A stretch of DNA of 58,591 bases, taken from positions 1 to 58,591 of the forward strand of contig JABDGR010000002.1 of assembly GCA_013285985.1 (NCBI GenBank), given 5' to 3'. Below the pieces are notes generated by a model. It worked only from the letters and a program-made list of their open reading frames with translations. It searched no databases and was not told the DNA's origin. Numbering within the stretch: the stretch's first letter is position 1; each line of letters starts with the position of its first letter. Position numbers and translations under genes: made by a program. Below, piece after piece: positions 3,885 to 52,500 of the stretch. This DNA comes from Verrucomicrobiota bacterium (GTDB taxonomy: Bacteria > Verrucomicrobiota > Verrucomicrobiia > Opitutales > JABDGR01).

Positions 3885-4082
3885 GACTGGCCCGGCAACG
3901 AGGGCCAGGCGGGTAAAATCAATTAGTTTAAGGAAACTACCAAACCCCCGCCGTGTCAAACCCTGGCTGGGGTGGGCTTTTCACCTTTGTGTCGGGACGG
4001 TTCTGACAACCAGCCCTAACTGTGTTTGCCGTCTAAATATGCTATTTACCCACGCTGCTTGGAGTCACTATCCTATTCTCTG

Positions 4083-5777: not shown

Positions 5778-5796
5778 ACTTCGATCACAGCGGCCA

Positions 5797-17205: not shown

Positions 17206-17277
17206 CAAGGGAAAGGTTGCCAGACGAGATATCCGTCGTTAGTAAGAAAAGTGAGGGCGCGGCTCCAGTTACACTCC

Positions 17278-32346: not shown

Positions 32347-34632
32347 CTAACCTGGGCTGCGGCGCGGCAGCCACCAGCAACCGAGCCAGATTAACCACGC
32401 TACGGCGGTCACGAGCAGGCCCGTATGCCACGATGGTGGGTCGTAAACGACCATCAGGTGGTGATGCCCCGCCGCCAGGGGAATCGCGCGCACAATATAA
32501 TCTCCCGGCAGAACGTCATAATGGTCTTGGGTGCTGCCCGGCAGCGGGCGGGCGCGCCAGTCGCGGCTGTATAAATCCGTGATGAGGAGGATGGCCGGTG
32601 CGGGCGTGTCCGCTTCGATGCTGAGCGAGTCAGTGGTCGAGTCCGTCACTTTGGCCGTGCTGGCTATCGCGGAGGGTTGCGGACGTGGGGTAGGTTCCGT
32701 TTCAAGCAAGACTGTTTGGCGCGGATCGAAATCCGGCTTGGCGAATGCGGCGAAGACGGCGTCGCGGTTTGGCAGCACCTGATAATGCTGCACGAGCAGG
32801 ACGCGCGGCAATGCGCCGCGGCCTTCGACGATTTGATAGCCCTTGTCCGCATGCACAAAGGCGAAGCGAAAGCGGACCAGCGACAAAATCGGCGGCAGGT
32901 ATTTGAATTCCACGTATTGGGTGACATGATCCATCGGCCCTTGTTGGGCGAAGGTCATGAACTCGGCGTAACGCTTGAGCACCGCCGGGTCGTTGCCCCA
33001 TAAATCGGGTGCGCCAAGAAAGTACCCGTTGTCCTCGCGGTCGAAGTTTAACACGCGGTAGTCGCCGGGATGCGCTTCGACGTAGGCAGCCAGAATATCA
33101 GGCATCACCTCGGGCCAGCGGGACGTGCCCAGGCCGCCCCATGCAAACGAGAGCATTTCGAGCGGCAGCAACGCCAGCGGCACCCAGCGAAATTCCGGCC
33201 GACGCAATCCCGCCATCAGGCTGGTGCCGATAATCAGCCCCAGCCCGCCGGCCAGCAGCAAAGAATGGGCGGCGCCGGCGCCCAGGGTGGCTAGTGCCGG
33301 CTCGGGCGGATAGCCAACCCGCCCAAGGTAACTTTCGTGGGTGCCGACGATGAAGCTCCGCAAGGCGGCAATGCCTTCGGGGCTAACCACGAGATAACCT
33401 CCCGCCACCACCACTAGCAAGCTCACCGCCAGCACACCTCGTGCAAAAAATTTGCGCTCCAGCCGGCCACGCACCACGGCGTCGGCGCCCGCGCCGAGCA
33501 TCAGGATGACGAAGAGCAGCATCGGAAAAGAAAACTTGGCCAGGGTGCGGAAAGACCCAAAACCCGGGAAATAATCGTAAAGGATGCGCAAGAGCGGAGT
33601 ATGCCCCCCGAGGGCGAGCAGAAAGAGCAGCGCCGCGACGGCCAAATCCCGGCGGGCCGGGCGGCGGTGTTCGCGATCGCCGAGGGCAAACAGGGCGAGA
33701 ATCACGCCCGAGACGCCCATAAATACGGAAGCCTCCCACAAATAAATGCGGCCCCAATAGGTTTCAACGGGTAGATGGCCAAAAAACCATGGAGCGAAGA
33801 GCGTCAGGAGATTTTCCGGCGGAAAGGAAAATGAGCTCGCGAAGCTGAATTCCACTTTACCCTGGCGCACACTTTCAGCGGCCGCGGCAAAACCTGGTAA
33901 AAGTTGGGCCGCCGCCAGCGCCGCGGCCCCGGCATATACCACCACAGTCATTGGCAGCGCGCGCCGGATAAGAGAACGATCCGTCACGCTGAAGGCCAGC
34001 GCGTTCAACCCGGCGGCAATGGCGGTGTAGAAGACATATTGGGGATGCCCCGCGAGAATTTGTAGGCACACGCCCATGGCCGCGAGCAGCAACGGGCGCC
34101 GCGCGGGTCCGCGCCAGGCGTTTTCCAGAAAAATCAAAATCCACGGCGCCCAGGCCATGGAGCACACACTCGCCAAATGCCCGCCAAATAAATGCGGAAA
34201 AACCGGTCCGCACAAGGCTGCCGTAAACCCGGCCAGTGCACAGGCGGCGGGATGAAACCCGCGCCGCGTGCACCAATAGCCCATGCCCCAGGCCAGAATC
34301 AGCAAATGGAGCAGAAACGACAAATTCAGCGTCTGAACCAGCGGCAAAAACAAAAAGATGACGTTCAGCGGATATAATTCGGCAGATTGGAAATCACCCA
34401 GAAACGGCTGGCCGGCGTAGGTGTAGGGGTTCCAAAGCGGCAGATGTCCTGCGCTGATGCTGTCTGCCGCAAATGCGCGCCACGCCGCGAACTGCCCGGT
34501 CAAGTCCGTCCCCGCGGCGGAAAGGAACAAATCATCCGGCAATAAAAGCGCCAGGGCCAGCACCCCGGCCAGGCTGAGCAGGACGAAGAGCCACACGCGA
34601 CGGAATTTGGCCGCCGGTTCCAAGGGGGTCAT
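32347..34632 (-). CDS. YfhO-like polytopic membrane protein (putative GT-C glycosyltransferase)
   Basis: 761 aa with more than 10 TM segments. The N-terminal motif DLTGQFAAWRAFAADSISAGHLPLWNPYTYAGQPF resembles the YfhO family. A soluble C-terminal domain follows. Confidence 0.65.
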   Translation of the reverse strand: MTPLEPAAKFRRVWLFVLLSLAGVLALALLLPDDLFLSAAGTDLTGQFAAWRAFAADSISAGHLPLWNPYTYAGQPFLGDFQSAELYPLNVIFLFLPLVQTLNLSFLLHLLILAWGMGYWCTRRGFHPAACALAGFTAALCGPVFPHLFGGHLASVCSMAWAPWILIFLENAWRGPARRPLLLAAMGVCLQILAGHPQYVFYTAIAAGLNALAFSVTDRSLIRRALPMTVVVYAGAAALAAAQLLPGFAAAAESVRQGKVEFSFASSFSFPPENLLTLFAPWFFGHLPVETYWGRIYLWEASVFMGVSGVILALFALGDREHRRPARRDLAVAALLFLLALGGHTPLLRILYDYFPGFGSFRTLAKFSFPMLLFVILMLGAGADAVVRGRLERKFFARGVLAVSLLVVVAGGYLVVSPEGIAALRSFIVGTHESYLGRVGYPPEPALATLGAGAAHSLLLAGGLGLIIGTSLMAGLRRPEFRWVPLALLPLEMLSFAWGGLGTSRWPEVMPDILAAYVEAHPGDYRVLNFDREDNGYFLGAPDLWGNDPAVLKRYAEFMTFAQQGPMDHVTQYVEFKYLPPILSLVRFRFAFVHADKGYQIVEGRGALPRVLLVQHYQVLPNRDAVFAAFAKPDFDPRQTVLLETEPTPRPQPSAIASTAKVTDSTTDSLSIEADTPAPAILLITDLYSRDWRARPLPGSTQDHYDVLPGDYIVRAIPLAAGHHHLMVVYDPPSWHTGLLVTAVAWLIWLGCWWLPRRSPG

Positions 34633-39224: not shown

Positions 39225-40073
39225 ATGCCCGCAAAAAAGTCCAGGAATCGCAGCAAGCCCGCGGTGTCGCGCGCGGCCAAGGCGCCGGCGGATTCCCTGC
39301 TCGCACGGCTGACGCGCTATGTGACGCGCCGGTTTGGCGGCGCCGAGCCGCGTGACCCATCGCTCGAAGCCTTGCAGGAGCGGCTGAAGTATAAATTTCG
39401 CAAAAAGAACTTACTGGAGGAGGCGCTGACGCACCCGTCCTTCGCCCAGCAGGAACGCCACCGCGTGCCGCACAATCAACGGCTGGAGTTTTTGGGCGAC
39501 GCCGTGCTGAGTTTGATTCTGGCCGAGCGGCTTTTTCACGATCTGCCCGGCGAGCGTGAAGGCGAACTGGCGCGGGCGCGTTCGGCACTGGGCAAGGGCG
39601 AATTGCTGGCAACGCTGGCGCGCAAGCTGGGCCTCCCGGCGTGTTTGCGCCTGGCCAAGGGCGACGCCGCCGCGGGCGGGCGCGAATGGATGTCGTCGCA
39701 GGAGGACGCCTTCGAGGCGTTGGTTGGCGCGGTGTATCTGGACAGCGATTTTGCGACGGCGCGCGATGTCGTCTTGAAATGGTTTGGCGACCTCGACGAA
39801 TTGCGCGCAGAATTGCTCAGCGGCGATAACCCGAAAGGCCGTTTGCAGGAATGGCTCGCGCAACGTGGATTGGCCCAAGCGCATATCTACCGGTTGCGGC
39901 AGACAACCGGGCCGGACCACGCGAAGGTCTTTCAGGTTGAATTGGTGGTAAACGGCGAAGTTTTGGGTGAAGGCGAAGGCCGCTCGAAAAAAGAGGCCGA
40001 AGAGCAGGCCGCGCGCACAGCCCTCGTTGCCCTGGCCCTGCGCGAACAGAAACAGCAGCAAACGCAGCAGTAG
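39225..40073 (+). CDS. rnc: ribonuclease III
   Basis: ATG at 39225. RNase III signature NQRLEFLGDAVL, EDAFEALVGAVYLD and a C-terminal dsRBD. Confidence 0.93.
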   Translation: MPAKKSRNRSKPAVSRAAKAPADSLLARLTRYVTRRFGGAEPRDPSLEALQERLKYKFRKKNLLEEALTHPSFAQQERHRVPHNQRLEFLGDAVLSLILAERLFHDLPGEREGELARARSALGKGELLATLARKLGLPACLRLAKGDAAAGGREWMSSQEDAFEALVGAVYLDSDFATARDVVLKWFGDLDELRAELLSGDNPKGRLQEWLAQRGLAQAHIYRLRQTTGPDHAKVFQVELVVNGEVLGEGEGRSKKEAEEQAARTALVALALREQKQQQTQQ

Positions 40074-40257
40074 AAATTACAAAAACACATCAGGGCGGCT
40101 GTGCGTGCAACCTGCTGGATGGCAAGGAAATATGATTTTTCCGAGTTGAAGTGCTTTCCAGTGTTTCACCGCTGGCGATTTTAGGTAACTATTACATGAG
40201 CATTGCTTAATCATACCGCATGCCCTCGTTATCGGAAACTCCCAACCCGCACCAATT

Positions 40258-40473
40258 ATGAATGACGACCCCGCCCAAAACCCTCCACGAAGCATCGAAG
40301 TTGAAAAAGAACGAACCAAACGCACGTCATCCGCCAGCACAATCGCGATCTGCACAGCGGGCTGCGCCTTTTTGTTGTTGGTGAACGCGCCGACTTGGCC
40401 CGCAGCCTTTGGAGTTATGGCCCTCAGTGGCATGGCCGTGGTCGTTTGTTATTACATTTTGCATCAGAAATAA
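40258..40473 (+). CDS. small hypothetical membrane protein (two TM segments)
   Basis: 71 aa with an ATG start. A charged N-terminus is followed by IAICTAGCAFLLLV and AAFGVMALSGMAVVVCYYIL. It lies 62 bp upstream of the kinase gene. Coding status is not proven. Confidence 0.4.
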   Translation: MNDDPAQNPPRSIEVEKERTKRTSSASTIAICTAGCAFLLLVNAPTWPAAFGVMALSGMAVVVCYYILHQK

Positions 40474-40535
40474 TGCGAACACCCGGTCGGGTAAAATTAG
40501 GCAAAACCACTGATTTCCCAAACGAGGCCTGACTC

Positions 40536-43500
40536 ATGACATTTCTGCTTACTCTGCTTGGTGGGATCGAGGCCGTAAAAAGCATGGTTCTGCTGTCGGC
40601 ATTGTTTTTAGGCCTGGGGGGCACGGTGCTATGGATTTGGGCGCTGATTGATTGCAGCAAGCAAACCAGCTCCGACCCCAGCCACAATCACCGCCAATTG
40701 GTGTGGTTGCTGGTCGTCGCCCTGACCCATATGTTCGGCGCGCTGCTGTATTTTATTTTCGGCCGGGCTTCGCTGATGTCATCACGCAGCGCCATTCCTG
40801 CCTCCACGCCGCAGACCATGGCGCGCGCCGCCGCCGCGCCCCCGTCCGTATCGCCGCAGCCGACTTCGCGCCCCAAGGCACAATGCCCCAAATGCGGCGG
40901 GCCACTGGGGCCGGATGCGCCGGAAGGCCTGTGCCCGCGGTGTTTGCTGCAAATGAACCTCGGCGCGCCGACACAGTTCACCGGTGAATCAGGGGCGCGA
41001 TTTACAACCAATGCGCCTCCGCCACCGATGCCGCCGGAGGAAATCGCCCAACATTTCCCGCAGTTGGAAATTCTTGAATGCCTCGGCCGCGGCGGGATGG
41101 GCGTGGTCTACAAGGCGCGGCAGCCGCGTCTCAACCGTCTGGTGGCGCTGAAAATTCTTGCGCCAGGCCGCCAGCAGGACCCGCAATTTGCGGAGCGTTT
41201 TTTACGTGAGGCCCAGGCGCTGGCGAAACTCAACCACCCCAACATCGTCACCGTTTACGATTTCGGCGAGTCAGACGGGCTTTACTATTTGCTGATGGAA
41301 TACGTGGACGGCGTGACGCTGCGTGGGCTGTTGCAAGGCGGCAAGGTGGAGTCCGGCCAGGCGCTGGCCATCGTGCCGCGCATTTGCGAGGCACTACAGT
41401 ACGCGCACGAGCAGGGCGTCGTCCACCGCGACATCAAGCCGGAGAATGTGCTGCTGGACAAGCAGGGCCGCGTGAAAATCGCGGATTTCGGCATCGCACG
41501 GATGCTGGGCGTCGAGGGCCTGCCTGCACACACGCGCGACCGCTACGTCATTGGCACGCCCTACTACATGGCGCCCGAGCAGGTCGAACATCCGCTGGAG
41601 GTGGACCATCGCGCGGACATTTATTCGCTCGGCGTGGTGTTTTACGAAATGCTGACGGGCGAATTGCCGCTGGGCCGCTTCGCCCTGCCGTCGCAAAAGG
41701 TGCAGTTGGACGTGCGGCTGGACGACGTGGTGTTGCGCACGCTGGAGAAAGAGCCGCAGCGGCGTTACCAGCAGGCGGGGCAGGTCAAGACGGATGTGGA
41801 GCACATCACGGGGGTGGGCACGAGCGGAGGATCACCCATTCCCGGTGTGGCTTTGGGCGCGCCACCGCGCCCGCCCACTCCACCGCCGGTTGCGCCGCCG
41901 CGCGGTGGTTTCGCAGCCAACCCGCCGGGCGAGTCGCGCTTTTCCGGCAAGGCGATAGCCGGCATCGTGTGGGCGGCGTTGGGCGCCACAACATTGATGT
42001 TGATTGGACATTCCGGTGTCGTGTTCCCGAGAGATTTCCATCTGCTGGCACTCATCTTCGTCTTCACATTTCTGGCCGCCCCTTTGGGCACAACGATCCT
42101 CGGCTGGGCCGCCGTGGGCGACATCCGCCGCTCGAACGGAAAAATTCACGGCCTCTGGCTGGCGGTGTTTGACGGCTTGCTGTTTCCCATTATCGCCCTG
42201 AGTGGGCTGATTTTGTTTATGTGCTTTGTGGCCGAGCGGCCGATCCTTGACCATTTTGCGCAATTCGCCAGCAACGGTCTGAACCGGCAGGATTTTATGG
42301 ATTTCCATCGGCTGGATTTCCTGGCGCCGGGAATTTTCCTTTCTCTAATCGCCGATATCTTGATTATCTGGCTGGTGGCGCGGGCGGTGCATCGCGTGAT
42401 GCATCCCGCCCCGGCGGAGCCAGCCAGCCTGCTTTGGGGGATGATGAAAGCGCTCGCGGTGATTGTTATATTGGCAATCGTGGCAACCGTGGTCTTTGCG
42501 GGCGTCGGGCTCCTTTCCTACAATGGAATGAGTCGCCAGTTTCTGGCGACGGCAGAACATATCGCCAATAAGGACTCTTTCCAAACCGTATGGAATCAGG
42601 CCGTGAACTCCATGATTCAAGCCGTGAACGCGAAATTGCCGGATTACAGCCTGCGCTACGATAACCTCCATGTGTTCTGGGCGCCGGAAATGAACCGCGC
42701 CACCATTGTATTGGACAATGCCCAGGAGATGATGGGGGTGAACGGCACCAATGCATGGAAGTCCGTCGACGGCTCACTCTACGCGACTTACACCGGCGAT
42801 GGAATGTGGACCATCCAGGGAGATGGCCATTTGGGCAATGTGCAATTCCAGGCGCCCGGGCCGGACACCGGCCAGCCGTTGCCTGAACCGGTCGGGCAGC
42901 CGCAGGCTGCTCTTTTTCCTGCACCGGCCTCAGCAAATGCATCGGCGTCTGCGGACGATATTGATTCACTGCGCGTCGAGTTGCAGCAGGCCCAACATAA
43001 TTTGGATAATGTGAAGCAGAAACTTGACCAGGGGCTGGCGGTGCTGGCGGACGTCATCAATGCCCAGGAAGTAGTGGATGTTTTGGACGCGGAAATAAAC
43101 GGCGGCCCGGTGCAAATTGCGCAGGCGCATCTCGACGCCGCGCAGCACCGACTCGCGAACGATGAGCAGTTATTGCGGGCCGGTTTAATCACCCAGGCGG
43201 ATTATGACCAGGCCAAAGCGGAAGTGGATGCGCGCAAAGCCGAGGCGGATGCTGCACAGGGAAATAATCAGCCGGTTGCGGCCGCAGCAAATGGGGCAAA
43301 CGTTCCTTCTCCAGCCGCGATCACCGTTCCCGACCCGCCGGGATACACCGTTACCTCGGCGTCCTCCTCCTCGCCCGCGCCGTCCATTCCGGATCCGCCG
43401 GCTTACGTGGCCGCGCAGGCAGCTCCAGACACTTCGGTCGCGGTGGAAATTGACGCAATCAAGCAACTCAACTTCGAAAATTCGCGGCTGGTTTCATTGC

Positions 43501-43751
43501 TCAATATCGCGCGGCGGCCCAACCTCAGTCCGGCGTCCCAAGTCCGCCTGGTGCAGACGGCCTTTTCCAATCTGGATTTTGAAAACAACAAAATAGCGCT
43601 GCTCTTGGAAATCATTCGCAATCCGAAGTTCAGCGAGCAGGCGCGCACCGCGATCTTGTCCCGGATTGGCTCACTCAATTTCGAAAACAGCCGGGTGGTG
43701 ATCTTGAACTTCCTGAACCAGCATCCGGCGACAGCTCCGGCGGCGCATTAA
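40536..43751 (+). CDS. multi-domain membrane Ser/Thr protein kinase (PLDc_N-like TM pair, zinc ribbon, kinase, polytopic block, coiled coil, C-terminal NFENS repeats)
   Basis: GRGGMGVVYKA, VALK, HRDIKPENVLL, DFG and APE kinase motifs. Zinc ribbon CPKCGGPLGPDAPEGLCPRCLL. The N-terminal WIWALIDC...LVWLLVVALTHMFGALLYFIFGR resembles the PLD-nuclease N-terminal TM domain. Confidence 0.9.
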   Translation: MTFLLTLLGGIEAVKSMVLLSALFLGLGGTVLWIWALIDCSKQTSSDPSHNHRQLVWLLVVALTHMFGALLYFIFGRASLMSSRSAIPASTPQTMARAAAAPPSVSPQPTSRPKAQCPKCGGPLGPDAPEGLCPRCLLQMNLGAPTQFTGESGARFTTNAPPPPMPPEEIAQHFPQLEILECLGRGGMGVVYKARQPRLNRLVALKILAPGRQQDPQFAERFLREAQALAKLNHPNIVTVYDFGESDGLYYLLMEYVDGVTLRGLLQGGKVESGQALAIVPRICEALQYAHEQGVVHRDIKPENVLLDKQGRVKIADFGIARMLGVEGLPAHTRDRYVIGTPYYMAPEQVEHPLEVDHRADIYSLGVVFYEMLTGELPLGRFALPSQKVQLDVRLDDVVLRTLEKEPQRRYQQAGQVKTDVEHITGVGTSGGSPIPGVALGAPPRPPTPPPVAPPRGGFAANPPGESRFSGKAIAGIVWAALGATTLMLIGHSGVVFPRDFHLLALIFVFTFLAAPLGTTILGWAAVGDIRRSNGKIHGLWLAVFDGLLFPIIALSGLILFMCFVAERPILDHFAQFASNGLNRQDFMDFHRLDFLAPGIFLSLIADILIIWLVARAVHRVMHPAPAEPASLLWGMMKALAVIVILAIVATVVFAGVGLLSYNGMSRQFLATAEHIANKDSFQTVWNQAVNSMIQAVNAKLPDYSLRYDNLHVFWAPEMNRATIVLDNAQEMMGVNGTNAWKSVDGSLYATYTGDGMWTIQGDGHLGNVQFQAPGPDTGQPLPEPVGQPQAALFPAPASANASASADDIDSLRVELQQAQHNLDNVKQKLDQGLAVLADVINAQEVVDVLDAEINGGPVQIAQAHLDAAQHRLANDEQLLRAGLITQADYDQAKAEVDARKAEADAAQGNNQPVAAAANGANVPSPAAITVPDPPGYTVTSASSSSPAPSIPDPPAYVAAQAAPDTSVAVEIDAIKQLNFENSRLVSLLNIARRPNLSPASQVRLVQTAFSNLDFENNKIALLLEIIRNPKFSEQARTAILSRIGSLNFENSRVVILNFLNQHPATAPAAH
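43450..43724 (+). repeat. three ~32-aa intragenic protein repeats centred on (L)(N/D)FEN(S/N) at the kinase C-terminus (DUF4476-like)
   Basis: IKQLNFENSRLVSLLNIARRPNLSPASQVRLVQ / AFSNLDFENNKIALLLEIIRNPKFSEQARTAILS / RIGSLNFENSRVVILNFLNQH. Confidence 0.55.
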
Positions 43752-43820
43752 CCCGATTCATCCAGGATTCAGGCTCGCGTGGAAGCGGGGCAAAGAATAT
43801 GCTGGGCGGTGATTTCCCCC

Positions 43821-44390
43821 ATGCACATTTCCTCTCTGGCTAAGTTCTGGCGGCCAATCACCGGCGTTCTTTTGGGCGCATTAATCCTGGCGGCCTGCTC
43901 CAAGAGCGCTCCGGCCGCGTCCGCGGACGAGGAAAAGCACGCCCCGCGCCTGGGAGCGTGGACGGAGGATTACGCCGCCGCCGTCAAGCAGGCCAAGGCG
44001 GAAAAGAAAAAAATCCTGCTCGATTTCACCGGGTCGGACTGGTGCGTGAATTGTTTCCGCCTCGACGACGGGGTTTTTTCCAAGCCGGAGTTTGCCGATT
44101 TCGCCAAGACGCACTACGTGCTCGTGACCCTGGATTTCCCCGCCAAAAGAAAAATGCCCGACAGCGTCACGGACCAAAATGCCGCCCTCATGACGAAATA
44201 CATGGTTCAGGGCCTGCCGACCGTGGTTCTACTCGATGCCGACGAGAACAAGCTCGTCTCCCTGCTGGGCTACCGGGGCGAAGATGCGGCGAAATTTATC
44301 GACGAACTGGAGCACCCCAGCGCACCGGCCATGCCGCCCGACCCGGCCAGTGCCGCACCGATGCCGCCCGCGACCCCGGCCAGTAAATAA
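43821..44390 (+). CDS. thioredoxin-fold lipoprotein (Thioredoxin_7 / DsbD-gamma-like, CxxC)
   Basis: ATG at 43821 with lipobox LILAAC. KKILLDFTGSDWCVNCFRLD carries a WCVNC active site, followed by GLPTVVLLD. Confidence 0.75.
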   Translation: MHISSLAKFWRPITGVLLGALILAACSKSAPAASADEEKHAPRLGAWTEDYAAAVKQAKAEKKKILLDFTGSDWCVNCFRLDDGVFSKPEFADFAKTHYVLVTLDFPAKRKMPDSVTDQNAALMTKYMVQGLPTVVLLDADENKLVSLLGYRGEDAAKFIDELEHPSAPAMPPDPASAAPMPPATPASK

Positions 44391-45584
44391 ATGAGGTTTT
44401 GCTTTGCCAGGTTGCTTTCTTGGCCGGCGGTCTTGTGCGCTGCCGTGGCGCTCGCAGGCTGCCAGAGCAAGCCGGAGGAGCGCCTGTGGGTGGATACGAG
44501 CATCAACGGGCGCCCTGTCCATCTGTTCGTGGATACCGGCTCGACGATTTCGATGCTGAAGCGCTCAACGGCCGCCGAACTGGGACTGAAAATCACCGAG
44601 CCGCCGCCCCAGCCGGATTTGCCTCCCGGCACATTGAATTTTGCGCTGACCGAACCGGGCGACTTGATGTTTTTGAATGCACCCAGCCATATTCGCTTCG
44701 GAGTGCATGACATGCCGCCCTATGTTCAGCTCGGCGCCGACGGCGTGGTCGGCTGGTCGGAATTGCGCCGGAAAATATTACTCTTTGACGCGCCGACTCG
44801 GCAGATTCATCAGCTGGACAAATTGCCCGACGACATCGCGGGGTGGGTGCGGTTAAGCATTTTGCCCAGCCGCCAGATGCTGATTTTGCAAACGCCGGGG
44901 CCCGGCGGCCCGCCCGGGTTGATTTACGTCGACACGGGCAACCCCTCCGGCGTCGGCCTGTCGCCGGAGCATTGGGAGGCGTGGCGCGGGGCGCACCCCG
45001 GCGAGCAGGAGACCATGCGAATTTATTACACACCCGGTGCGGGCGTGGTCACTTGCGAGCAATCCTGGGCGCGGGAGATCCCCCTGGGGCCGTTTACGCT
45101 CACGGATACGCCCGTGGAGAAAGGCGATCCCGTGACCACCGGGGCGGGCGGAGCGCAGCATGTGGCCACCCTGGGCATGGCCGCTTTGCGCCGGCTGGAT
45201 TTTATTTTCGATGGCACCCAAAACGTGGTTTACCTGCGCCCAAAAACCACGCCGCCCGCGCCTTTCGAGCATAACCGCCTTGGCGCGGTATTCACGCCGC
45301 TGAACGACAACAGCGAAAGCCTGGTGGCGGAGGTCGCGGAAGGCACGCCCGCCTACGAGGCTGGGTTGCGCGATGGCGACACCGTCACAGGCATCAACAA
45401 TGTCTTCCAGCTCAACTGGCGAAAACACCCCCAGCTGGGCCTGCCGGATTTTACCTGGGATGCCGGCAGCAAGGTGCGCCTGCAGGTTTTGCGCCACGGC
45501 AGCCATTACATGCTCTATGCCCGCATGCGCAACCTGATTGGGCCGGGGTCGGCAGGCTATGAACCGGCAGTGGGCGGGCATTGA
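44391..45584 (+). CDS. lipoprotein with two retropepsin-like aspartyl protease lobes plus a C-terminal PDZ domain
   Basis: Lipobox VALAGC. The two lobes are HLFVDTGSTISMLK and LIYVDTGNPSGVGL. PDZ-like VAEVAEGTPAYEAGLRDGDTVTGINN. The start codon directly follows the upstream TAA. Confidence 0.75.
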   Translation: MRFCFARLLSWPAVLCAAVALAGCQSKPEERLWVDTSINGRPVHLFVDTGSTISMLKRSTAAELGLKITEPPPQPDLPPGTLNFALTEPGDLMFLNAPSHIRFGVHDMPPYVQLGADGVVGWSELRRKILLFDAPTRQIHQLDKLPDDIAGWVRLSILPSRQMLILQTPGPGGPPGLIYVDTGNPSGVGLSPEHWEAWRGAHPGEQETMRIYYTPGAGVVTCEQSWAREIPLGPFTLTDTPVEKGDPVTTGAGGAQHVATLGMAALRRLDFIFDGTQNVVYLRPKTTPPAPFEHNRLGAVFTPLNDNSESLVAEVAEGTPAYEAGLRDGDTVTGINNVFQLNWRKHPQLGLPDFTWDAGSKVRLQVLRHGSHYMLYARMRNLIGPGSAGYEPAVGGH

Positions 45585-45607
45585 AACGCCGGTGGTTGTG
45601 TGCTTCT

Positions 45608-46372
45608 ATGAGTGCGCCCCCGATGAGCACGCCCGCCGACACCCCGCCGCGCCCGGTTGCCCCACGCGCACGTTTTGCCACGACGCGTTGGACGATGGTG
45701 CTCGCAGCGGGCCGTCGCTCATCCCCTGAGGCGGCGCGGGCGCTCGAGGAATTATGCCGGGTTTATTGGTACCCGCTCTACGTCTATGTACGCCGGCGTG
45801 GCCACGCGAAGGCGGATGCCGAGGATTTGACCCAGGCGTTTTTTGCCCGCCTCTTGGAGAAGGATTTTTTACGTGCCGCCGCCCGCGAAAAGGGCCGCTT
45901 CCGCACGTTCATGCTCGTGGCCTTCCAGCGTTTTTGCGCTAACGAATGGGACCGGGCTCGCGCGCAAAAACGCGGCGGCGGGCAGACGATTTTGTCCCTC
46001 AACCTCGACACCGCGGAGCGCCGCTATCATGCCGAACCAGCGGACGAATTGAGCGCCGACCGCATTTTCGAACGTCGCTGGGCGCTGACGCTCATCGAGC
46101 GGACCATCGCGCGCCTGCGCGGTGAATACGAAGCGGCAGGCAAGGGGAGTGACTTCGACCTGCTCAAGACCTTTCTGACCGCGGACAGCGACACTATTCC
46201 CTATGCGGAGCTTTCGGCGAAACTCGGACAGAGCGAAGGCGCGCTGCGGGTCGCCGTGCACCGGCTGCGCAAACGCTTCCGCGAACTGTTTCGCCAGGAA
46301 ATCGCCCAAACAGTTTCCAGCCCGGAAGAGATTGAAGGCGAACTCCGGTATCTGCTCTCGGTGCTTTCGTAG
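45608..46372 (+). CDS. ECF-type sigma-70 family RNA polymerase sigma factor
   Basis: TRWTMVLAAG...ALEELCRVYWYPLYVYVRRRGHAKADAEDLTQAFFARLLE (region 2) and YAELSAKLGQSEGALRVAVHRLRKRFRELF (region 4 HTH). The track start is TTG at 45581, overlapping the protease stop. ATGs occur at 45608 and 45623. Confidence 0.85.
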   Translation: MSAPPMSTPADTPPRPVAPRARFATTRWTMVLAAGRRSSPEAARALEELCRVYWYPLYVYVRRRGHAKADAEDLTQAFFARLLEKDFLRAAAREKGRFRTFMLVAFQRFCANEWDRARAQKRGGGQTILSLNLDTAERRYHAEPADELSADRIFERRWALTLIERTIARLRGEYEAAGKGSDFDLLKTFLTADSDTIPYAELSAKLGQSEGALRVAVHRLRKRFRELFRQEIAQTVSSPEEIEGELRYLLSVLS

Positions 46373-46411
46373 AAGGGGTGGAAATAATTCTTAAAATAGT
46401 TGTTGACCGAC

Positions 46412-46439
46412 AGAGGACTCTAATTTAAAGAGTACTCTA
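46412..46439 (+). promoter_or_regulatory. two copies of an 11-mer (AGAGGACTCTA / AGAGTACTCTA, 17 bp apart); the second contains the perfect 10-bp palindrome AGAGTACTCT ending 3 nt before the ATG at 46442
   Basis: Read directly from the sequence at 46412-46422 and 46429-46439. A degenerate copy, AGAGCACCCTA, sits at 47098-47108 in the same position relative to the ATG of the paralog at 47111. Confidence 0.3.
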
Positions 46440-46441
46440 TC

Positions 46442-47059
46442 ATGAATGAAGAAATGACCCAACCGCCGAGCCAGGCCGAGGCGCGTGCCGCCCTGGCCGA
46501 GGTGGATCGCATCATCGACCAAACGCGCCGGGCTCTGGCGCAAGGGCCCTCGGCGGCGTTGCTGATTTTGTGGGGCTGCATTTGGCTGGCCGCTGACGTG
46601 ACGACTCAGTTTTACCCCGCAGCCATGCAATGGCTCTGGTGGGTGTTGGATGGCGTTGGAATTTTAGGCTCGTGGTGGATCGGCGCTTGTCATGGCGCGA
46701 AAATCAAGAGTCCGGGTGCTTGGCGTTACGGAGTCTTTTGGTTGGTGCTGTTCGCCTATGCCGCGTTGTGGGTGTGCCTGTTGTTGCCGGTGAACTGGCC
46801 GCAGACCGATCTGCAGTGGGAACATTTCGAGCCGGTTTACCGGCGCATCACCGCTTATATCCACACCATTCCCATGTTTGCCTATGTTGTAGGCGGATTG
46901 TGGCTTGGGCGCTTCTTCGTCTGGCTGGGCTTGTTGGTCACGGCGCTCATTGTGGTCGGGCTGTGGTTCGTGCCGCACTATTATTATCTCTGGCTGGGTA
47001 TCGCCGGCGGCGGGTCGCTCATCGTCGCGGGTGTCTTCATCCGCAAATTTTGGAAATAA
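46442..47059 (+). CDS. hypothetical polytopic membrane protein, 205 aa, paralog 1
   Basis: MNEEMTQPPSQAEARAALAEVDRIIDQTRRAL, then about 5 TM segments, ending GVFIRKFWK. Confidence 0.65.
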   Translation: MNEEMTQPPSQAEARAALAEVDRIIDQTRRALAQGPSAALLILWGCIWLAADVTTQFYPAAMQWLWWVLDGVGILGSWWIGACHGAKIKSPGAWRYGVFWLVLFAYAALWVCLLLPVNWPQTDLQWEHFEPVYRRITAYIHTIPMFAYVVGGLWLGRFFVWLGLLVTALIVVGLWFVPHYYYLWLGIAGGGSLIVAGVFIRKFWK

Positions 47060-47110
47060 ATTCAGGCTGAAATCCTACTTAATCACTTTTAAACAACAGA
47101 GCACCCTATC

Positions 47111-47728
47111 ATGAACGAAGAACCTAATCCCCCGCCCAACCGCGACGAAGCCCGCGCGACCCTGGCCGCGATTGACGCCACCCACGCCGAGACTCGCCGA
47201 AACATTGGCAGTAGCGAGTTCGGGCCAAACATGATTTGGTGCGGGCTGCTGTGGATGGTGATATTTACGTATGTCCAGTTTCTCCCCGGCCCCGTATATT
47301 TGCTGTGGGTGCTTGCGGTGGCGTTTTTCGTTGCCTTTGCGGCGATGAAAAAACTCCGTCCGTCCCCCGTCAAGTCAGCCCCCGACTGGCGGGTCGGGGC
47401 GCTCTTACTGGTCATTCTTGGGTATGCCGGAATTTTTTGGGCTCTGCTGCAGCCGCAGGGGTTTCAAAAAAATTTACCATCGCCAGATGTCGTCATGGAG
47501 GCCCGAAAATTCGCCGCCTATGCCGTCATCGTTTCCATGTTCTTAAACGTTATTGTAGGCCTCACCGTACGGCCGAGCCGTTTTTTCGTTGGTCTGGGGT
47601 TGCTCATGACGGCGCTGGTTCTGGTCGGCTATTATTGCGTCCCCGCCTGGTTTTGTCTCTGGATGGCTGCGGTCGGCGGCAGTACGTTCGTTATCTCCGG
47701 CATCTTCATCCGCAAATTTTGGAAATGA
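47111..47728 (+). CDS. hypothetical polytopic membrane protein, 205 aa, paralog 2
   Basis: MNEEPNPPPNRDEARATLAAIDATHAETRRNI, then about 5 TM segments, ending GIFIRKFWK. Same length and layout as 46442..47059. Confidence 0.65.
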   Translation: MNEEPNPPPNRDEARATLAAIDATHAETRRNIGSSEFGPNMIWCGLLWMVIFTYVQFLPGPVYLLWVLAVAFFVAFAAMKKLRPSPVKSAPDWRVGALLLVILGYAGIFWALLQPQGFQKNLPSPDVVMEARKFAAYAVIVSMFLNVIVGLTVRPSRFFVGLGLLMTALVLVGYYCVPAWFCLWMAAVGGSTFVISGIFIRKFWK

Positions 47729-47731
47729 CCT

Positions 47732-48022
47732 ATGCCCGAACTCGACAAAATCATCCATTCGCCGGCCCGGCTCAAAATCATGGCCGCGTTGATGGCGCTG
47801 GGGCCCAGCGACCAGCTCGATTTTTCCACCCTCGGCACCACCCTGGGGCTGACGGACGGCAACCTCGGCGCGCACTTGCAGACGCTCGAGGAGGCCGGCT
47901 ACATCAAAATCGAAAAAACTTTCGTGGCACGCAAACCGCGCACCTTTGTGCGCACCACCACCCGCGGCCGCGCGCGCTTTGAGGAACACGTCGAGGCCCT
48001 GCGGGAAATTTGCAAAGTTTAA
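47732..48022 (+). CDS. winged-helix transcriptional regulator (HTH_34-like)
   Basis: LDKIIHSPARLKIMAALMAL...FSTLGTTLGLTDGNLGAHLQTLEEAGYIKIEKTFVARKPRTFVRTTTRGRARF matches the HTH_34 pattern. It starts 3 nt after the upstream stop. Confidence 0.8.
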   Translation: MPELDKIIHSPARLKIMAALMALGPSDQLDFSTLGTTLGLTDGNLGAHLQTLEEAGYIKIEKTFVARKPRTFVRTTTRGRARFEEHVEALREICKV

Positions 48023-48041
48023 CGGTTAACCCATTAAAATC

Positions 48042-48428
48042 ATGAAATGCTTCACCCACCGAAGTTCCGACGCCGTTGCCGTGTGCCGATCCTGCGGACG
48101 GGCCTTGTGCCCCGATTGCGTTGCGGAAGTCGGGCTTTCTTGTGCCTGCAAAAACCGCTGCGAACCGGATGTGGCAAAGTTCAACGAAATGCTCACTTGG
48201 GGCCGACCTGGGCCCCGGCCTGGGGCAGCGCTCCCAGTTGATTATTTCCGAATAATCTTCCTGATGGGAATGGGCCTGGCCTTCATCTGGTTCGGCTTGT
48301 TCTTCTTTGGCGGCCAGGGTGTAAATTGGTTTTTCGTCGCCATGGGAGGGCTCTTTTTCCTATTCGGTATTTCTCAATACTACATGAGCAAAAAACTTCA
48401 AAAATTCCTGGACAACAAGAAGGGCTAA
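48042..48428 (+). CDS. B-box-type zinc-finger membrane protein
   Basis: MKCFTHRSSDAVAVCRSCGRALCPDC has the pattern C-x2-H-x8-C-x2-C-x4-C-x2-C. Two or three TM segments follow (FLMGMGLAFIWFGLFFF, WFFVAMGGLFFLFGI). Confidence 0.65.
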   Translation: MKCFTHRSSDAVAVCRSCGRALCPDCVAEVGLSCACKNRCEPDVAKFNEMLTWGRPGPRPGAALPVDYFRIIFLMGMGLAFIWFGLFFFGGQGVNWFFVAMGGLFFLFGISQYYMSKKLQKFLDNKKG

Positions 48429-48484
48429 TCCCCTCTTGGAGCTCCCACAACCCCGCAAAAAACAATTTCCCATCCGTTAAAACC

Positions 48485-49456
48485 ATGAACACTCAAAATC
48501 CAAAATCAGCTCGAACCACCATCACGGTCCTCTCCCTGCTCTGCATAATTCTGGCCGGCGGGACCATCTATTCGCTCAGCCAGCTCCGCGATCTGGAGTC
48601 GGCCCAGGCCGATATGCAAAAAAAATTGGACGCCGAAGCAAAGGAAGCCAAAGACCTGGCGGCCGATGCGGCCCACTGGCGCAAACAGCGGGACAACCTG
48701 CTCGGGCAAAACAGCAACGCATCCAAACCGGCGGACGCGGACAAGTCTGCCAGCAAACGCATATTATCGCAGGATGAATTGAAGACGCTGGTAAAGAACC
48801 CCATGATGCAAAGCATGATCGCCTCGCAGCAATCGGCCGCCATCGCGATGACGTATAGCGCGATGTTGGACCACTTCAAACTCGCGCCGGAAGAACGTGA
48901 CTACCTGCAAAAGCTGCTCGTCGATAAGCAGATGGTCCAGGTCAACCTTGGGATGCAGATGATGAATGCGTCGATGTCCCCCGAGGACCGGGCGGCGCTG
49001 GGCCAGCAAATCGGCCAGGGCATGGCGGACGACGACGCGAAAATCAAGACCTTCCTCAATGATGACAAGGATTATGCTTACTACCAAACCTACACCCAGC
49101 AGGAGCCGGAACGGCTCGAGGTCGGCATGCTGCAGACCTCCCTCGGCGACAACGCCCTCAGCGCGGACCAGTCCGAGGCGCTGGCGAACCTGTTGAGCGA
49201 CTCACGCAACAGTTACCCGTTCACGGTGAATTTCTACGACCACCGCAATTTCGGCAACCCGGGGGTGATAAACTCCACCTCCATCAACAAGTTCCTCGAT
49301 GAGCAGACGCAATTTCAGGCCTCCCTCGTCGAAAAGGCCGCCGGGTTGCTGACGCCCGCGCAACTGGAAGCCTTCAAGCAAAATCAGGCGAACGTCCGAC
49401 AAATGACCCGAATGCAGATGAACAGCATCCAGCAACTGACCGGCAGCGGGCAGTAG
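48485..49456 (+). CDS. hypothetical membrane-anchored coiled-coil / Met-Gln-rich protein
   Basis: ATG at 48485 gives MNTQNPKSARTTITVLSLLCIILAGGTIYSL, a single TM anchor. A coiled-coil stretch follows (LRDLESAQADMQKKLDAEAKEAKDLAADAAHWRKQRD). No family recognised. Confidence 0.6.
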   Translation: MNTQNPKSARTTITVLSLLCIILAGGTIYSLSQLRDLESAQADMQKKLDAEAKEAKDLAADAAHWRKQRDNLLGQNSNASKPADADKSASKRILSQDELKTLVKNPMMQSMIASQQSAAIAMTYSAMLDHFKLAPEERDYLQKLLVDKQMVQVNLGMQMMNASMSPEDRAALGQQIGQGMADDDAKIKTFLNDDKDYAYYQTYTQQEPERLEVGMLQTSLGDNALSADQSEALANLLSDSRNSYPFTVNFYDHRNFGNPGVINSTSINKFLDEQTQFQASLVEKAAGLLTPAQLEAFKQNQANVRQMTRMQMNSIQQLTGSGQ

Positions 49457-49563
49457 GGAAGTCGTCTAATGCCCAGGCGCTGATTGCCACTGTCCAAGAA
49501 AGCGTGCAAAACGACGGGCGGGATTTATTATCGGTGGTTCGCCGGGAAAGCCGGTAGCCGCCG

Positions 49564-52500
49564 ATGAAACCCGTTCTTGTGCCCGTGGATTTTTCACCGC
49601 GCCTGCTCACGGGCGTGGCCGAAGCCGCCGCGGGGGCGTTTGCGGAGCAAATCACGCGCGAAAAAGGCCTGCCGGTCTCGCTGGTGCTAGCGCGCACATC
49701 CAGGCAACTGGACGGGCTGGCGGATGACTTGCAATTCTTCCATGAATTGGCCGGCAGGGAAAAAACATCGTGGGAGATTTTGCTTTATCCGGAATTGCCG
49801 GATGCGGGCGCCGAAGCGGCGGGGGTTGGCGGGGTCTTCGAACGGCAATGCGACCGGCTGGCCGTGCTCGCGGCTTTGGCGAAACGGGCCGAGAGCAAAT
49901 CCGCGCCCTCGCTGGTTATTGTCACGACCCTCGCCTCGCTCTTGCAGCCCGCGCCAAAGCCGGAGGACATGGCGGCGCGGGAAATCCGGCTGGCGCAAGG
50001 AGCAAGGGTGGATTTTCGCACACTGGCGGAAAAACTCGGCCACGAACTGGGCTATGACTGCGAGGCGTTGTGCGAAACGCCCGGGCAATACGCGGTGCGG
50101 GGTGGATTGCTCGACGTGTATCCCTTCAATGCGGCTGCGCCTGTGCGCCTGGATTTTTTTGGCGATGAACTCGAATCCATCCGCAGTTTTGACCCGACGA
50201 CCCAATTGACGGCGGAGACGCTGCGGGAAATTATTATTGCTCCAGCGCCGAAGGAGTTGGGCGGTGGCCCGCCGGCGGGCATCTTAAATTATCTGCCGAA
50301 AAGTGCCCACTGGATAGTCTGCGAACCTGCACGGCAGGCGGCGGAACAACCCGGGTTGTACACGGTGCCGGAAAAACTCGCGTCCATCCAGCCCACGCTG
50401 CAAACAATTCTCGATGCGCGGGCGGGCGCCAATGATTTTTGGGCTGGTTTGGGCGAGTTTGATGAAGCCGGCGGGCCCTTCGACGTCGACGCCGAACGGG
50501 TGGCTGCAGACACCGAGCCCACGCTGGCGCACCGCCCGCTGGCGAATATGCCGGCGCTCGGTCGCGCACGGCTGGAGAGCGACCAGGCTTCGCAACGGGC
50601 ATTTCTGCGCACGCTGGCGCAATGGTCGCGCGAAGGTACGGCCATCATCATCGTCACCCGCGCCGAGGGCGAGACTGGCCGCTTGCGGGAAATTCTCACC
50701 GAGGAAAAGTCCCTGCGTGACTTCTCCCCGAGAATCATTCCGGGCGATTTGGCCGCCGGCTTTCTGGCGCGTCCGGCCAAGGGGGCGCGGCTGGATTGGC
50801 CGTCGCTCGGAAAAAGCAAGGCGGTCGCGGTGGTGTCCGAGGGCGAAATTTTTGGGCGGCACCGCCAGCGCGTGGCGACGTTCCGCCCGCGGCGATTGCC
50901 GCAGCGGCACCGGGTGGACCAATTGCTGGATTTTTCCGAAATCGTGGAGGGCGACCACCTTGTGCACGTGGCCCATGGCGTGTGCCGGTTCCATGGACTG
51001 CGCAAGTTGACGACCCCTGGGCGCGATGAGGAGGTCATCTCCCTCGAATTCGCCGATGGGGTTGAGGTACATTTGCCGCTGCATGAGTCGCACCTTCTCT
51101 CCCGTTACGTGGGTCTGGCAAAAATCACGCCCAGGCTCGGCCGAATCGGCGGCAAAATCTGGGAGCGCACCCGCCACGAAGCCGAGCGCGCGACACTCGA
51201 TTTCGCGGCGCAATTGCTGCGTGTGCAGGCCGAACGCGACCAGCGCCCGGGTTTTCCTTTGCCGCCGGACGCGCCCTGGCAACGCGAATTCGAAGACGCC
51301 TTTCCGCATGAGGAAACACCCGACCAGCTGCGCAGCATCATCGAAACCAAGGCCGACCTCGAACGCGCGCGGCCGATGGACCGGCTGTTGTGCGGCGATG
51401 TGGGTTTTGGCAAGACGGAGGTGGCGCTGCGGGCCGCCTTCAAGGCGGTGCTCGGCGGCAAACAGGTGGTGGTACTGGCGCCGACCACCGTGCTCGTGCA
51501 GCAGCACTTGAACACTTTCCGCGAGCGCCTCGCGCCGTTTCCCGTTTCGGTCGAACAACTCAGCCGCTTCCGTCCGCCGAAACAGCAGAAGCAAGTGCTC
51601 GCGCAATTGCGCGACGGGCAGCTCGACATCGTCATCGGCACGCACCGCCTGTTGGGTGCGGATGTGCGGTTCAAGGACCTCGGCCTGGTCATCATCGACG
51701 AGGAGCACCGCTTTGGCGTGCGGCACAAAGAGAAACTGAAGCAACTCCGCGCGGATGTGCACGTATTGGCGATGAGCGCCACGCCCATCCCGCGCACGCT
51801 GTACTTTGCCCTGGTGGGGGCGCGCGATTTGAGCGTGATTGAAACCCCGCCGCGCGACCGCCTGGCCATTGAGACCGTGGTGAAAAGCTTCTCGCCGGAA
51901 CTCACGCAACAGGCCATCCGCCACGAACTGGGACGCGGCGGGCAGGTTTTTTATTTGCACAACCGCGTGGAGACGATTGAAGAATGCGCCCAGAACCTGC
52001 GTCGATGGGTGCCGGAGGCTCGGCTCGGCGTCGGCCACGGGCAGATGGACGCCGAGGATTTGGAGAAAGTGATGACCCGTTTCGTCGCCGGCGAATTCGA
52101 TGTGCTGGTTTGCACGACCATCATCGAGTCGGGCCTCGACATCCCGAATTGCAACACCCTCATCATCGAAGGCGCGGACCGCTTCGGCCTGGCGCAGCTT
52201 TACCAGCTGCGCGGGCGGGTGGGGCGCTTCAACCGGCAGGCCTACGCGTACTTGCTGTTGCACCGGCACGCCCGCTTGCTCGACCAAGCCCGCAAACGGC
52301 TGGCGGCCATCCGGCAATTCAACCAGCCCGGCGCGGGCTTCCGTCTGGCGATGCGCGACCTGGAACTGCGCGGTGCGGGCAATCTGCTCGGCGCGGAGCA
52401 GAGCGGTCACATCGTGGGCGTGGGCTTTGACCTTTATTGCCAGTTGCTGCGGCAGAGCATTGCCCGGCTTAAAGGCGAGCCGGCGGCCCTGGCCATCCGG

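Follow-up and report, generated by a model that had tools for sequence, protein, structure and literature searches.

Which protein controls an extracytoplasmic function (ECF) sigma factor when no anti-sigma factor is encoded beside it, and what part is played by two lipoproteins whose genes lie between this sigma factor and a Ser/Thr kinase (STK), are the questions raised by a gene cluster of a Verrucomicrobiota bacterium (Opitutales, JABDGR01; GenBank assembly GCA_013285985.1, contig JABDGR010000002.1, positions 1 to 58,591 of the forward strand). The window, i.e., this whole stretch of 58,591 nucleotides, contains five co-directional genes at positions 40,258 to 46,372. All five open reading frames (ORFs) were found on the + strand with the identities given in the initial annotation, which was also right about the gaps of 62, 69 and 0 bp between the first four genes. 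The last gap, put there at no more than 23 bp, is 38 bp with the sigma gene starting at 45623; a gap of 23 bp requires an ATG at 45608, whereas gene caller and orthologues use 45623 (MSTPADTPP..., 249 aa). The cluster comprises the following features (TM, transmembrane; PVC, Planctomycetes-Verrucomicrobia-Chlamydiae; AF2, AlphaFold2):

40185..40210, + strand: ECF-type promoter-like element GTAAC-N17-CTTAA (−35 with AAC, −10 CTTAA; preceded by ATTTT)
40258..40473, + strand: 71-aa protein with two predicted TM helices (ORF with two hydrophobic segments), first gene of the putative operon in part of the clade
40536..43751, + strand: Hanks-type Ser/Thr kinase, 1071 aa (Pfam/NCBIfam matches; TM segments and Cys positions)
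43821..44390, + strand: DsbH-like thioredoxin-fold lipoprotein (Thioredoxin_7, E=9e-16; WCVNC active site, LAAC lipobox)
44391..45584, + strand: lipoprotein with two retropepsin-like halves as a pepsin-like pseudo-dimer and a C-terminal PDZ domain (Pfam Asp_protease_2, PDZ; AF2/Foldseek)
45623..46372, + strand: divergent 249-aa ECF sigma factor from a large PVC family linked to STKs (DAED, F-x-T-T-x-W and KRGGG motifs)

These features are probably best explained by a single operon in which a receptor kinase controls an autoregulating ECF sigma factor and a captured thioredoxin/protease module constitutes the output. As part of this explanation, kinase and sigma factor would represent a cognate-type pair of a very large PVC family of ECF/Hanks-kinase pairs devoid of anti-sigma factors.

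Pairing of the kinase with the sigma factor

The last gene of the cluster encodes an ECF (group 4) sigma-70 factor. The protein has no Pfam match, and its match to TIGR02937 over residues 54-235 reaches 34 bits, below the cut-off of 42.9. Regions 2.2 and 4.2 of M. tuberculosis SigE align to a profile of the sigma factor built from 14 homologues (E=7e-6). The AF2 model consists of helices throughout, arranged as two domains joined by a linker, and each of its top 12 Foldseek matches is an ECF sigma factor, albeit with weak E values of 0.04-0.6. PF04542, PF08281 or PF07638 is present in many homologues. The family is very large and highly conserved, with at least 7980 matches among 8000 scored candidates and many members 60-66 % identical; within the window clade, i.e., the Opitutales loci sharing the gene order of the window, the sigma factor is 74-90 % identical to the window copy. 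Neither the sigma factor nor the kinase has a second copy within the window.

The kinase is of the Hanks (eukaryotic-like) Ser/Thr type. Its Pkinase match (E=1.9e-54) covers residues 178-380 of a kinase domain at ~171-440, and the catalytic motifs GRGGMG, VALK, HRDIKPEN, DFG and YMAPE are readable in the translation. An in-frame PLDc_N hairpin of two TM segments (residues 31-77; window 40536-40766 corresponds to residues 1-77) precedes a CxxC-x12-CxxC motif at residues 117-136, which is common to most sigma-adjacent kinases. Most clade orthologues have the hairpin, whereas kinases of the wider family lack it and carry the Cys motif at the extreme N-terminus. Five more TM segments at 473-657 (seven in all) are followed by a Cys-free C-terminal domain of ~410 aa, which contains coiled coil, is predicted to be periplasmic and carries three repeats of the NFENSR/DFENNK type at its end (window 43400-43720, residues ~955-1060). 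The kinase domain is 86-96 % identical within the window clade; the sensor region differs among the orthologues, whose lengths span 732 to 2024 aa and whose C-termini are unlike. A conserved PDZ-ligand C-terminus was looked for on the kinase orthologues and not found. No Ser/Thr phosphatase partner was seen among the scanned window ORFs, the scan covering part of them.

In L109 (loci of the comparison below are denoted by L numbers), a 238-aa ORF after the kinase gene (6443-7159) is a homologue of the NFENSR-type repeat module. In the window, a TM and coiled-coil protein (48479-49456, ORF from 48326) is encoded downstream of an HTH_34 regulator, and its jackhmmer relatives are located directly after kinase domains in further sigma/kinase loci, namely L019 (11792-13297), L055 (6848-7906) and L020 (16455-18122). 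This protein may represent a detached kinase sensor module.

Adjacency of the two genes was followed through 80 genome loci from Verrucomicrobiota and Planctomycetota metagenome-assembled genomes (MAGs) and Chthoniobacter flavus, which together hold 91 sigma copies. A related STK adjoins the sigma gene in 76 of the 91, with the order sigma->STK (within 1.5 kb) in 65 and STK->sigma in 11 cases; the remaining 15 copies are without adjacent kinase, several of them lying at contig ends. Most partner kinase domains share 60-77 % identity with that of the window (median 66 %). In the kinase-first loci, the STK stop codon is positioned ~10-65 bp, typically ~15 bp, before the sigma gene, and these pairs are otherwise free of inserted genes, bar one 146-aa ORF in L010. 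The window kinase gene is 1.9 kb upstream of the sigma gene in the same putative operon. Distances among sigma factors and among their partner kinases correlate family-wide (Mantel r=0.29, reached by none of 500 permutations). The initially proposed link between kinase and sigma factor is thus strongly supported by the family-wide adjacency and by the membership of the window kinase in the same kinase family. With regard to synteny of all four genes across PVC genomes, only this part stands, since the thioredoxin and protease genes are linked to the pair in a single Opitutales clade.

The window sigma factor therefore belongs to the STK-associated ECF sigma factors, a class defined by genomic context, and the pairing as such is a known, already predicted signalling class of Verrucomicrobia and Planctomycetes. 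ECF/Ser-Thr-kinase pairs are among the most abundant and least studied signalling devices of these phyla; a literature search combining Verrucomicrobia, ECF and kinase retrieved no study. The groups ECF59-ECF62 were reportedly defined by Jogler et al. 2012. Established STK-associated groups without anti-sigma factor are ECF43, ECF59-62, ECF217 and ECF283 (PMC7826278), of which ECF217 originates from Casas-Pastor et al. 2021 (PMC7826278). Since ECF59/60 are reported to lack DAED (PMC8103513), they are unlikely groups for the present sigma factor, while ECF61, 62, 217 or an unclassified group are possible. The window pair resembles ECF59-62/ECF217 systems in PVC taxon, in an ECF sigma factor without co-encoded anti-sigma factor, in a nearby Hanks kinase and in belonging to a paralogous family with several pairs per genome. 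It differs by the two lipoprotein genes in between and by the kinase coming first, the less frequent of the two orders in the family. Tandem sigma->kinase arrays are found elsewhere in this family, with four pairs in ~15 kb in L004 (1-15400) and three in L032 (4900-15400), pointing to massive paralogous expansion in Limisphaerales/Pedosphaera-type MAGs.

No recognisable anti-sigma factor is co-encoded with the sigma factor: as the initial annotation had it, none of the five downstream ORFs contains an anti-sigma domain recognisable by Pfam or NCBIfam, hidden Markov models (HMMs) being a tool that may miss novel anti-sigma factors and often does (PMC7826278). The sigma gene is followed by genes for two paralogous multi-TM proteins of 205 aa without family assignment (46442-47059 and 47111-47728) and for an HTH_34 winged-helix regulator (47732-48022). 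The first of them could in principle be an unrecognised membrane anti-sigma factor on which the kinase acts instead of on the sigma factor. Such a role would agree with its position directly after the sigma gene (+1) in the window, L081, L084, L086 and L088, and with its membrane location and short cytoplasmic N-terminus. On the other hand, the HTH_34 gene always comes next, within 3-8 bp, and the unit of membrane protein (1-3 gene copies) and HTH_34 is conserved by itself: it occurs without adjacent sigma gene in L108, apart from the sigma gene in L002, L083 and L109, is missing after the sigma gene in L001, and the membrane protein is absent from the other ~90 sigma copies. Since the 205-aa protein tracks HTH_34 rather than the sigma factor, a role as hidden anti-sigma factor is very improbable.

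Promoter-like element and proposed control of the sigma factor

Alignment of the regions upstream of the small first gene from four orthologues yielded the element ATTTTnGGTAAC-N16/17-(G)CTTAA at 40185-40210. An AAC in the −35 region is a hallmark of ECF promoters. The element is found once in the window, against 0.04 expected from shuffled sequences, and in 8 of 8 orthologous loci, once per locus (twice in L086) and upstream of the 71-aa gene or the STK gene; in these loci it never occurs upstream of the thioredoxin, protease or sigma genes. GTAA and CTTA are invariant and the spacing is fixed in an alignment of 15 sequences. In a sister clade including C. flavus, the element is located 31-55 nt upstream of canonical sigma genes, scores of at least 8/9 being reached there by 10 of 102 sigma upstream regions, compared with 1.1 % of random segments. 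In an independent kinase-first clade, it is found directly upstream of the STK gene in 10 of 11 loci. Judged from these alignments, the promoter-like element stays at the start of the pair operon irrespective of which gene leads, its family-wide form being GTAAC-N16-CTT(A/C).

A second motif, GCTTGCG-N14-16-CGTTA, was rejected for the present locus, as it has only poor matches within coding sequence of the window. It is located 44-72 nt upstream of ~15 sigma paralogues of other clades (L004, L030, L032, L039, L043, L086) and reaches threshold in 18 of 102 sigma upstream regions. The occurrence of this second motif class suggests that promoter specificity differs from clade to clade within a single sigma family.

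The spacing of the genes leaves little room for promoters of their own. Gaps among thioredoxin, protease and sigma genes amount to 0-49 bp, with 14-49 bp between protease and sigma gene in six loci, and the protease gene follows the STK gene after 1 bp in L084. A scan for sigma-70 consensus promoters and terminators (39800-49700) gave no informative intergenic sites and no intergenic terminator-like site inside the cluster. Short gaps, absence of an intergenic terminator-like site and a single promoter-like element make one autoregulated five-gene operon the most economical reading, and suggest, as far as gene spacing and motif position can tell, that the lipoproteins are co-expressed as output. 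This operon would run from the putative promoter at 40185-40210 through the genes for the 2-TM peptide, the receptor Ser/Thr kinase, the DsbH-like thioredoxin and the aspartic-protease/PDZ lipoprotein to that for the ECF sigma factor.

In the proposed mechanism, the polytopic kinase would sense an envelope or extracellular cue by means of its predicted periplasmic domain, and its cytoplasmic kinase domain would activate the sigma factor, most likely by phosphorylating it directly. Once active, the sigma factor would transcribe its own operon from GTAAC-N16/17-CTTAA, resulting in positive feedback. Kinase-dependent activation of the sigma factor is, by analogy, a logic likely shared with EcfP/PknT (Vibrio parahaemolyticus) and EcfK/PknS (Xanthomonas citri), which likewise combine a membrane Hanks kinase with a nearby anti-sigma-less ECF sigma factor. 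EcfP and EcfK are activated directly by phosphorylation (PMC8999054, PMC13147305). In region 2.2 of ECF43, uncharged residues (e.g., STTA) replace DAED, and Thr phosphorylation at this site restores binding to the β' clamp helices (PMC8999054, PMC8103513); EcfK has an added phosphorylation in the linker (PMC13147305). STK-linked groups retaining DAED may work otherwise, according to reviews (PMC8999054).

The DAED-less ECF43 type is the only one worked out, and the EcfP/PknT precedent invoked initially cannot be transferred directly, since DA[E/Q]D is retained in the window sigma factor and throughout its family. Residues 65-68 in region 2.2 are DAED and align to DAEDLTQ of SigE, the sequence of the window protein being the same; among 69 homologues, conservation reaches at least 90 % for D65 and A66, position 67 is E or Q, and D68 is invariant. 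Membership in ECF43 (EcfP/EcfK type) is thereby ruled out, as uncharged Ser/Thr residues are not present at this site. With DAEDLTQ intact, the sigma factor should bind core RNA polymerase there without phosphorylation, so that a different control point must exist elsewhere and the phospho-switch would not be the threonine switch in sigma-2.2 that operates in EcfP.

Two family-specific invariant features could hold this control point, judging from their conservation and position. The motif F-x-T-T-x-W (residues 18-23, window 45674-45691) is N-terminal to region 2.1, invariant in the 69 aligned homologues, and placed by the AF2 model at the start of a short helix of low confidence (22-31). The KRGGG motif (residues 116-120) lies in the sigma2-sigma4 linker. 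Candidate phosphosites may thus be the invariant Thr20/Thr21 of F-x-T-T-x-W or sites in the linker, and both motifs offer concrete sites for mutation. The family-wide promoter-like element may in turn be used for regulon prediction.

Thioredoxin/protease module between the two genes

The thioredoxin-fold lipoprotein has its best PDB relative in 2ju5, DsbH of Chlamydia (E=8.5e-29). It differs from the latter by its lipid anchor and by a score of 111 bits with the DsbH model NF043050 (cut-off 190), CxxC and lipoprotein signal being present. WCxxC is invariant in the orthologues, and a TM-like anchor replaces the lipobox in L086 and L088.

For the second lipoprotein, Pfam finds the first retropepsin half and the PDZ domain, not the second half. 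The double-retropepsin architecture read from the sequence initially is nevertheless borne out by the invariant second DTG and by the fold. The motifs DTGS (48-51) and DTGN (181-184) are accompanied by lipobox Cys24, and both DTG as well as this Cys are invariant in six orthologues; across 67 homologues, D181 and G183 do not vary, and D48, T49, G50 and T182 are conserved to at least 90 %. In Foldseek, the AF2 model (predicted local distance difference test score, pLDDT, 93.3) has structural counterparts among bilobal pepsins and tethered HIV protease dimers as well as in an endopeptidase of B. fragilis (E 1e-10 to 1e-6). Based on this model, the protein corresponds to a tandem-retropepsin/pepsin-like protease with two D-T/S-G motifs in one bilobal chain. 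The best structural match is the B. fragilis endopeptidase 9iy9 (E=1.4e-10), from which the window protein differs by the extra PDZ domain and by its own small family of 86 clusters. The PDZ domain is most similar to those of DegP/DegQ and of RseP-type site-2 proteases.

The gene order of the window clade is RNase III, a small peptide or a 516-520-aa gene, STK, thioredoxin (0-2 copies), protease and sigma factor, followed by the 205-aa membrane protein (1-3 copies) with HTH_34 and the coiled-coil protein. The interleaved order is held in L081, L083, L084, L086, L088, L093 and L109, with extra genes between the sigma gene and the membrane-protein/HTH_34 unit in L083 and L109. When all ORFs of the 80 loci were searched by jackhmmer with thioredoxin and protease, members turned up in the window clade only, apart from one unrelated distant match 9 kb from a sigma gene. 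Conversely, the thioredoxin-protease pair occurs without flanking kinase or sigma gene in L091, L092, L108 (together with membrane-protein/HTH_34/coiled-coil genes) and L110, and the protease alone, more distantly related, in L097-L105 and L111. The kinase- and sigma-free copies are 57-62 % (thioredoxin) and 48-51 % (protease) identical to those of the window, compared with 54 and 47 % for the flanked copies in L109.

The pair is therefore an autonomous, separate module and not part of the signalling system of the family, and its place between kinase and sigma factor is confined to one Opitutales clade. The four-gene arrangement pointed out in the initial annotation does not represent a conserved system, since none of the other sigma/kinase pairs of the comparison includes thioredoxin and protease. 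Of the two roles considered initially for the lipoproteins, that of first regulon members is the better option, one promoter-like element heading all five genes, whereas that of sensory accessories is not favoured. The lineage would thus carry an autonomous periplasmic module inside the operon, most likely as a co-expressed output for periplasmic redox and proteolytic housekeeping rather than as an obligate part of the sensor.

A role of the lipoproteins as periplasmic co-sensors nonetheless has to be weighed. The PDZ-aspartic protease could clip the periplasmic domain of the kinase or generate its ligand, and the thioredoxin could provide redox gating, resulting in a four-component envelope-stress sensor. 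PDZ proteases act in sigma-E signalling, and PerP is a periplasmic retropepsin-like protease, so that precedents exist. Conservation of both DTG motifs and the PDZ domain, the likeness of the latter to DegP/DegQ and RseP-type domains, and the start of the protease gene 1 bp after the STK gene in L084 are in line with such a role, as is the invariable position of the protease between STK and sigma factor in the clade, even at 40-47 % identity. However, copies lacking any kinase or sigma gene (L091, L092, L108, L110, L111) are as similar as flanked ones, the module is absent from all other sigma/STK pairs, and the non-conserved periplasmic domain and C-terminus of the kinase are unlikely to be a fixed substrate. 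With a periplasmic domain devoid of Cys and a single Cys in the mature protease, no thioredoxin substrate was found within the system, and the thioredoxin is dispensable, being absent from L084. We consider a co-sensor function rather unlikely.

Comparison with Sigma-E/RseA/DegS/RseP leads to a similar picture: a periplasmic PDZ protease is likewise encoded with an ECF sigma factor, but no anti-sigma substrate is recognised here, the protease is an aspartic pseudo-dimer and not a serine or metalloprotease, and the module is autonomous elsewhere. Regulated intramembrane proteolysis of the DegS/RseP type was rejected as a candidate, as there is no recognised membrane anti-sigma factor and the protease module is independent of a sigma factor elsewhere. 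One may also speculate that the clade recruited the free-standing module as a proteolytic/redox input to a kinase that controls the DAED-retaining sigma factor via a new phosphosite (e.g., the N-terminal Thr-Thr). This is quite unlikely; if true, it would constitute a protease-gated kinase-to-sigma pathway without anti-sigma factor, distinct from both DegS/RseA and EcfP/PknT.

Returning to the operon with a kinase-controlled sigma factor and the module as output, several points weigh against this explanation. The mechanism for this particular organism and ECF subgroup is extrapolated from comparison of sequences, and retention of DAED excludes the one switch whose mechanism has been proven. 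The promoter assignment derives from comparative sequence, and that this sigma factor reads the element is what we infer. The constant place of the protease between STK and sigma factor would also fit a functional link with signalling. For the window pair, sigma and kinase distances show no correlation outside its own clade (r=0.05 vs a median of 0.21), and the ranks of sigma and kinase by identity to the window are uncorrelated (rho 0.02). A neighbour-joining tree nests the window clade among sigma-first clades, apart from the kinase-first clade, so that the interleaved order is a derived rearrangement. Together with the missing distance correlation, this leaves the original cognacy of the two genes unproven. 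Finally, synteny extends to the flanks, from RNase III to Mfd throughout the clade, and synteny alone could account for the conserved interleaved order.

The latter points are also those that would speak for proximity without functional meaning, in which kinase and sigma factor are left over from different pairs, or the kinase has other targets, the lipoprotein and sigma genes have promoters of their own within coding sequence, and regional synteny alone preserves the arrangement. In L084, L086, L088 and L109, a canonical sigma->STK pair is encoded a few kb further downstream in addition to the present one, which agrees with this possibility. Yet the second pair was lost in the window and L081 while the present pair was kept, and the kinase belongs to the sigma-linked family by its Cys motif and by 60-77 % identity of the kinase domain. 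Moreover, a family-type promoter-like element heads the cluster and none precedes the sigma gene, gaps among thioredoxin, protease and sigma genes are too short to offer space for separate promoters, and both sigma factor and kinase domain are strongly constrained in the clade (74-90 and 86-96 % identity). Mere proximity is therefore held to be unlikely, and the kinase-controlled, autoregulating operon is preferred. The current understanding is not overturned by this locus. New points are the DAED retention and the family-wide promoter-like element, while the lipoprotein insertion is a clade-restricted variant. As an independent periplasmic redox/protease module placed under an ECF/kinase pair, the locus represents a natural experiment with a small testable regulon.

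Genomic setting and neighbouring genes

The window is an ordinary chromosomal stretch with a G+C content of ~60 %, and Opitutales MAGs are the closest named relatives of its proteins. Housekeeping genes encode DnaN, UvrC, an HflX-like GTPase, RuvB, CinA, 6-phosphogluconate dehydrogenase, QRPTase, ParA, RNase III and Mfd. An Rfam scan of the window yielded zero matches.

The 71-aa protein with two predicted TM helices is conserved at the protein level (69-89 % identity in L089, L090, L093 and L109) and has no family match in Pfam or NCBIfam. Its gene is missing in L083 and L084, where the promoter-like element directly precedes the STK gene.

Downstream of the HTH_34 gene, a 128-aa protein (48042-48428) combines an N-terminal B-box-like Cys/His zinc finger (24.0 bits, cut-off 24.1) with 2-3 TM segments; it is restricted to the window and the locus most closely related to it (L081/L089). 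Large ORFs of 455-761 aa with high G+C at third codon positions and without Pfam match are located at 4026-5777, 5719-7431, 17251-18618 and 32347-34632 of the window. In L110 (12671-15079, − strand), an 802-aa protein annotated with Sigma70_r2, Sigma70_r4 and a Serpin domain, an unusual sigma-serpin fusion, is encoded near the stand-alone Fur-thioredoxin-protease cluster.

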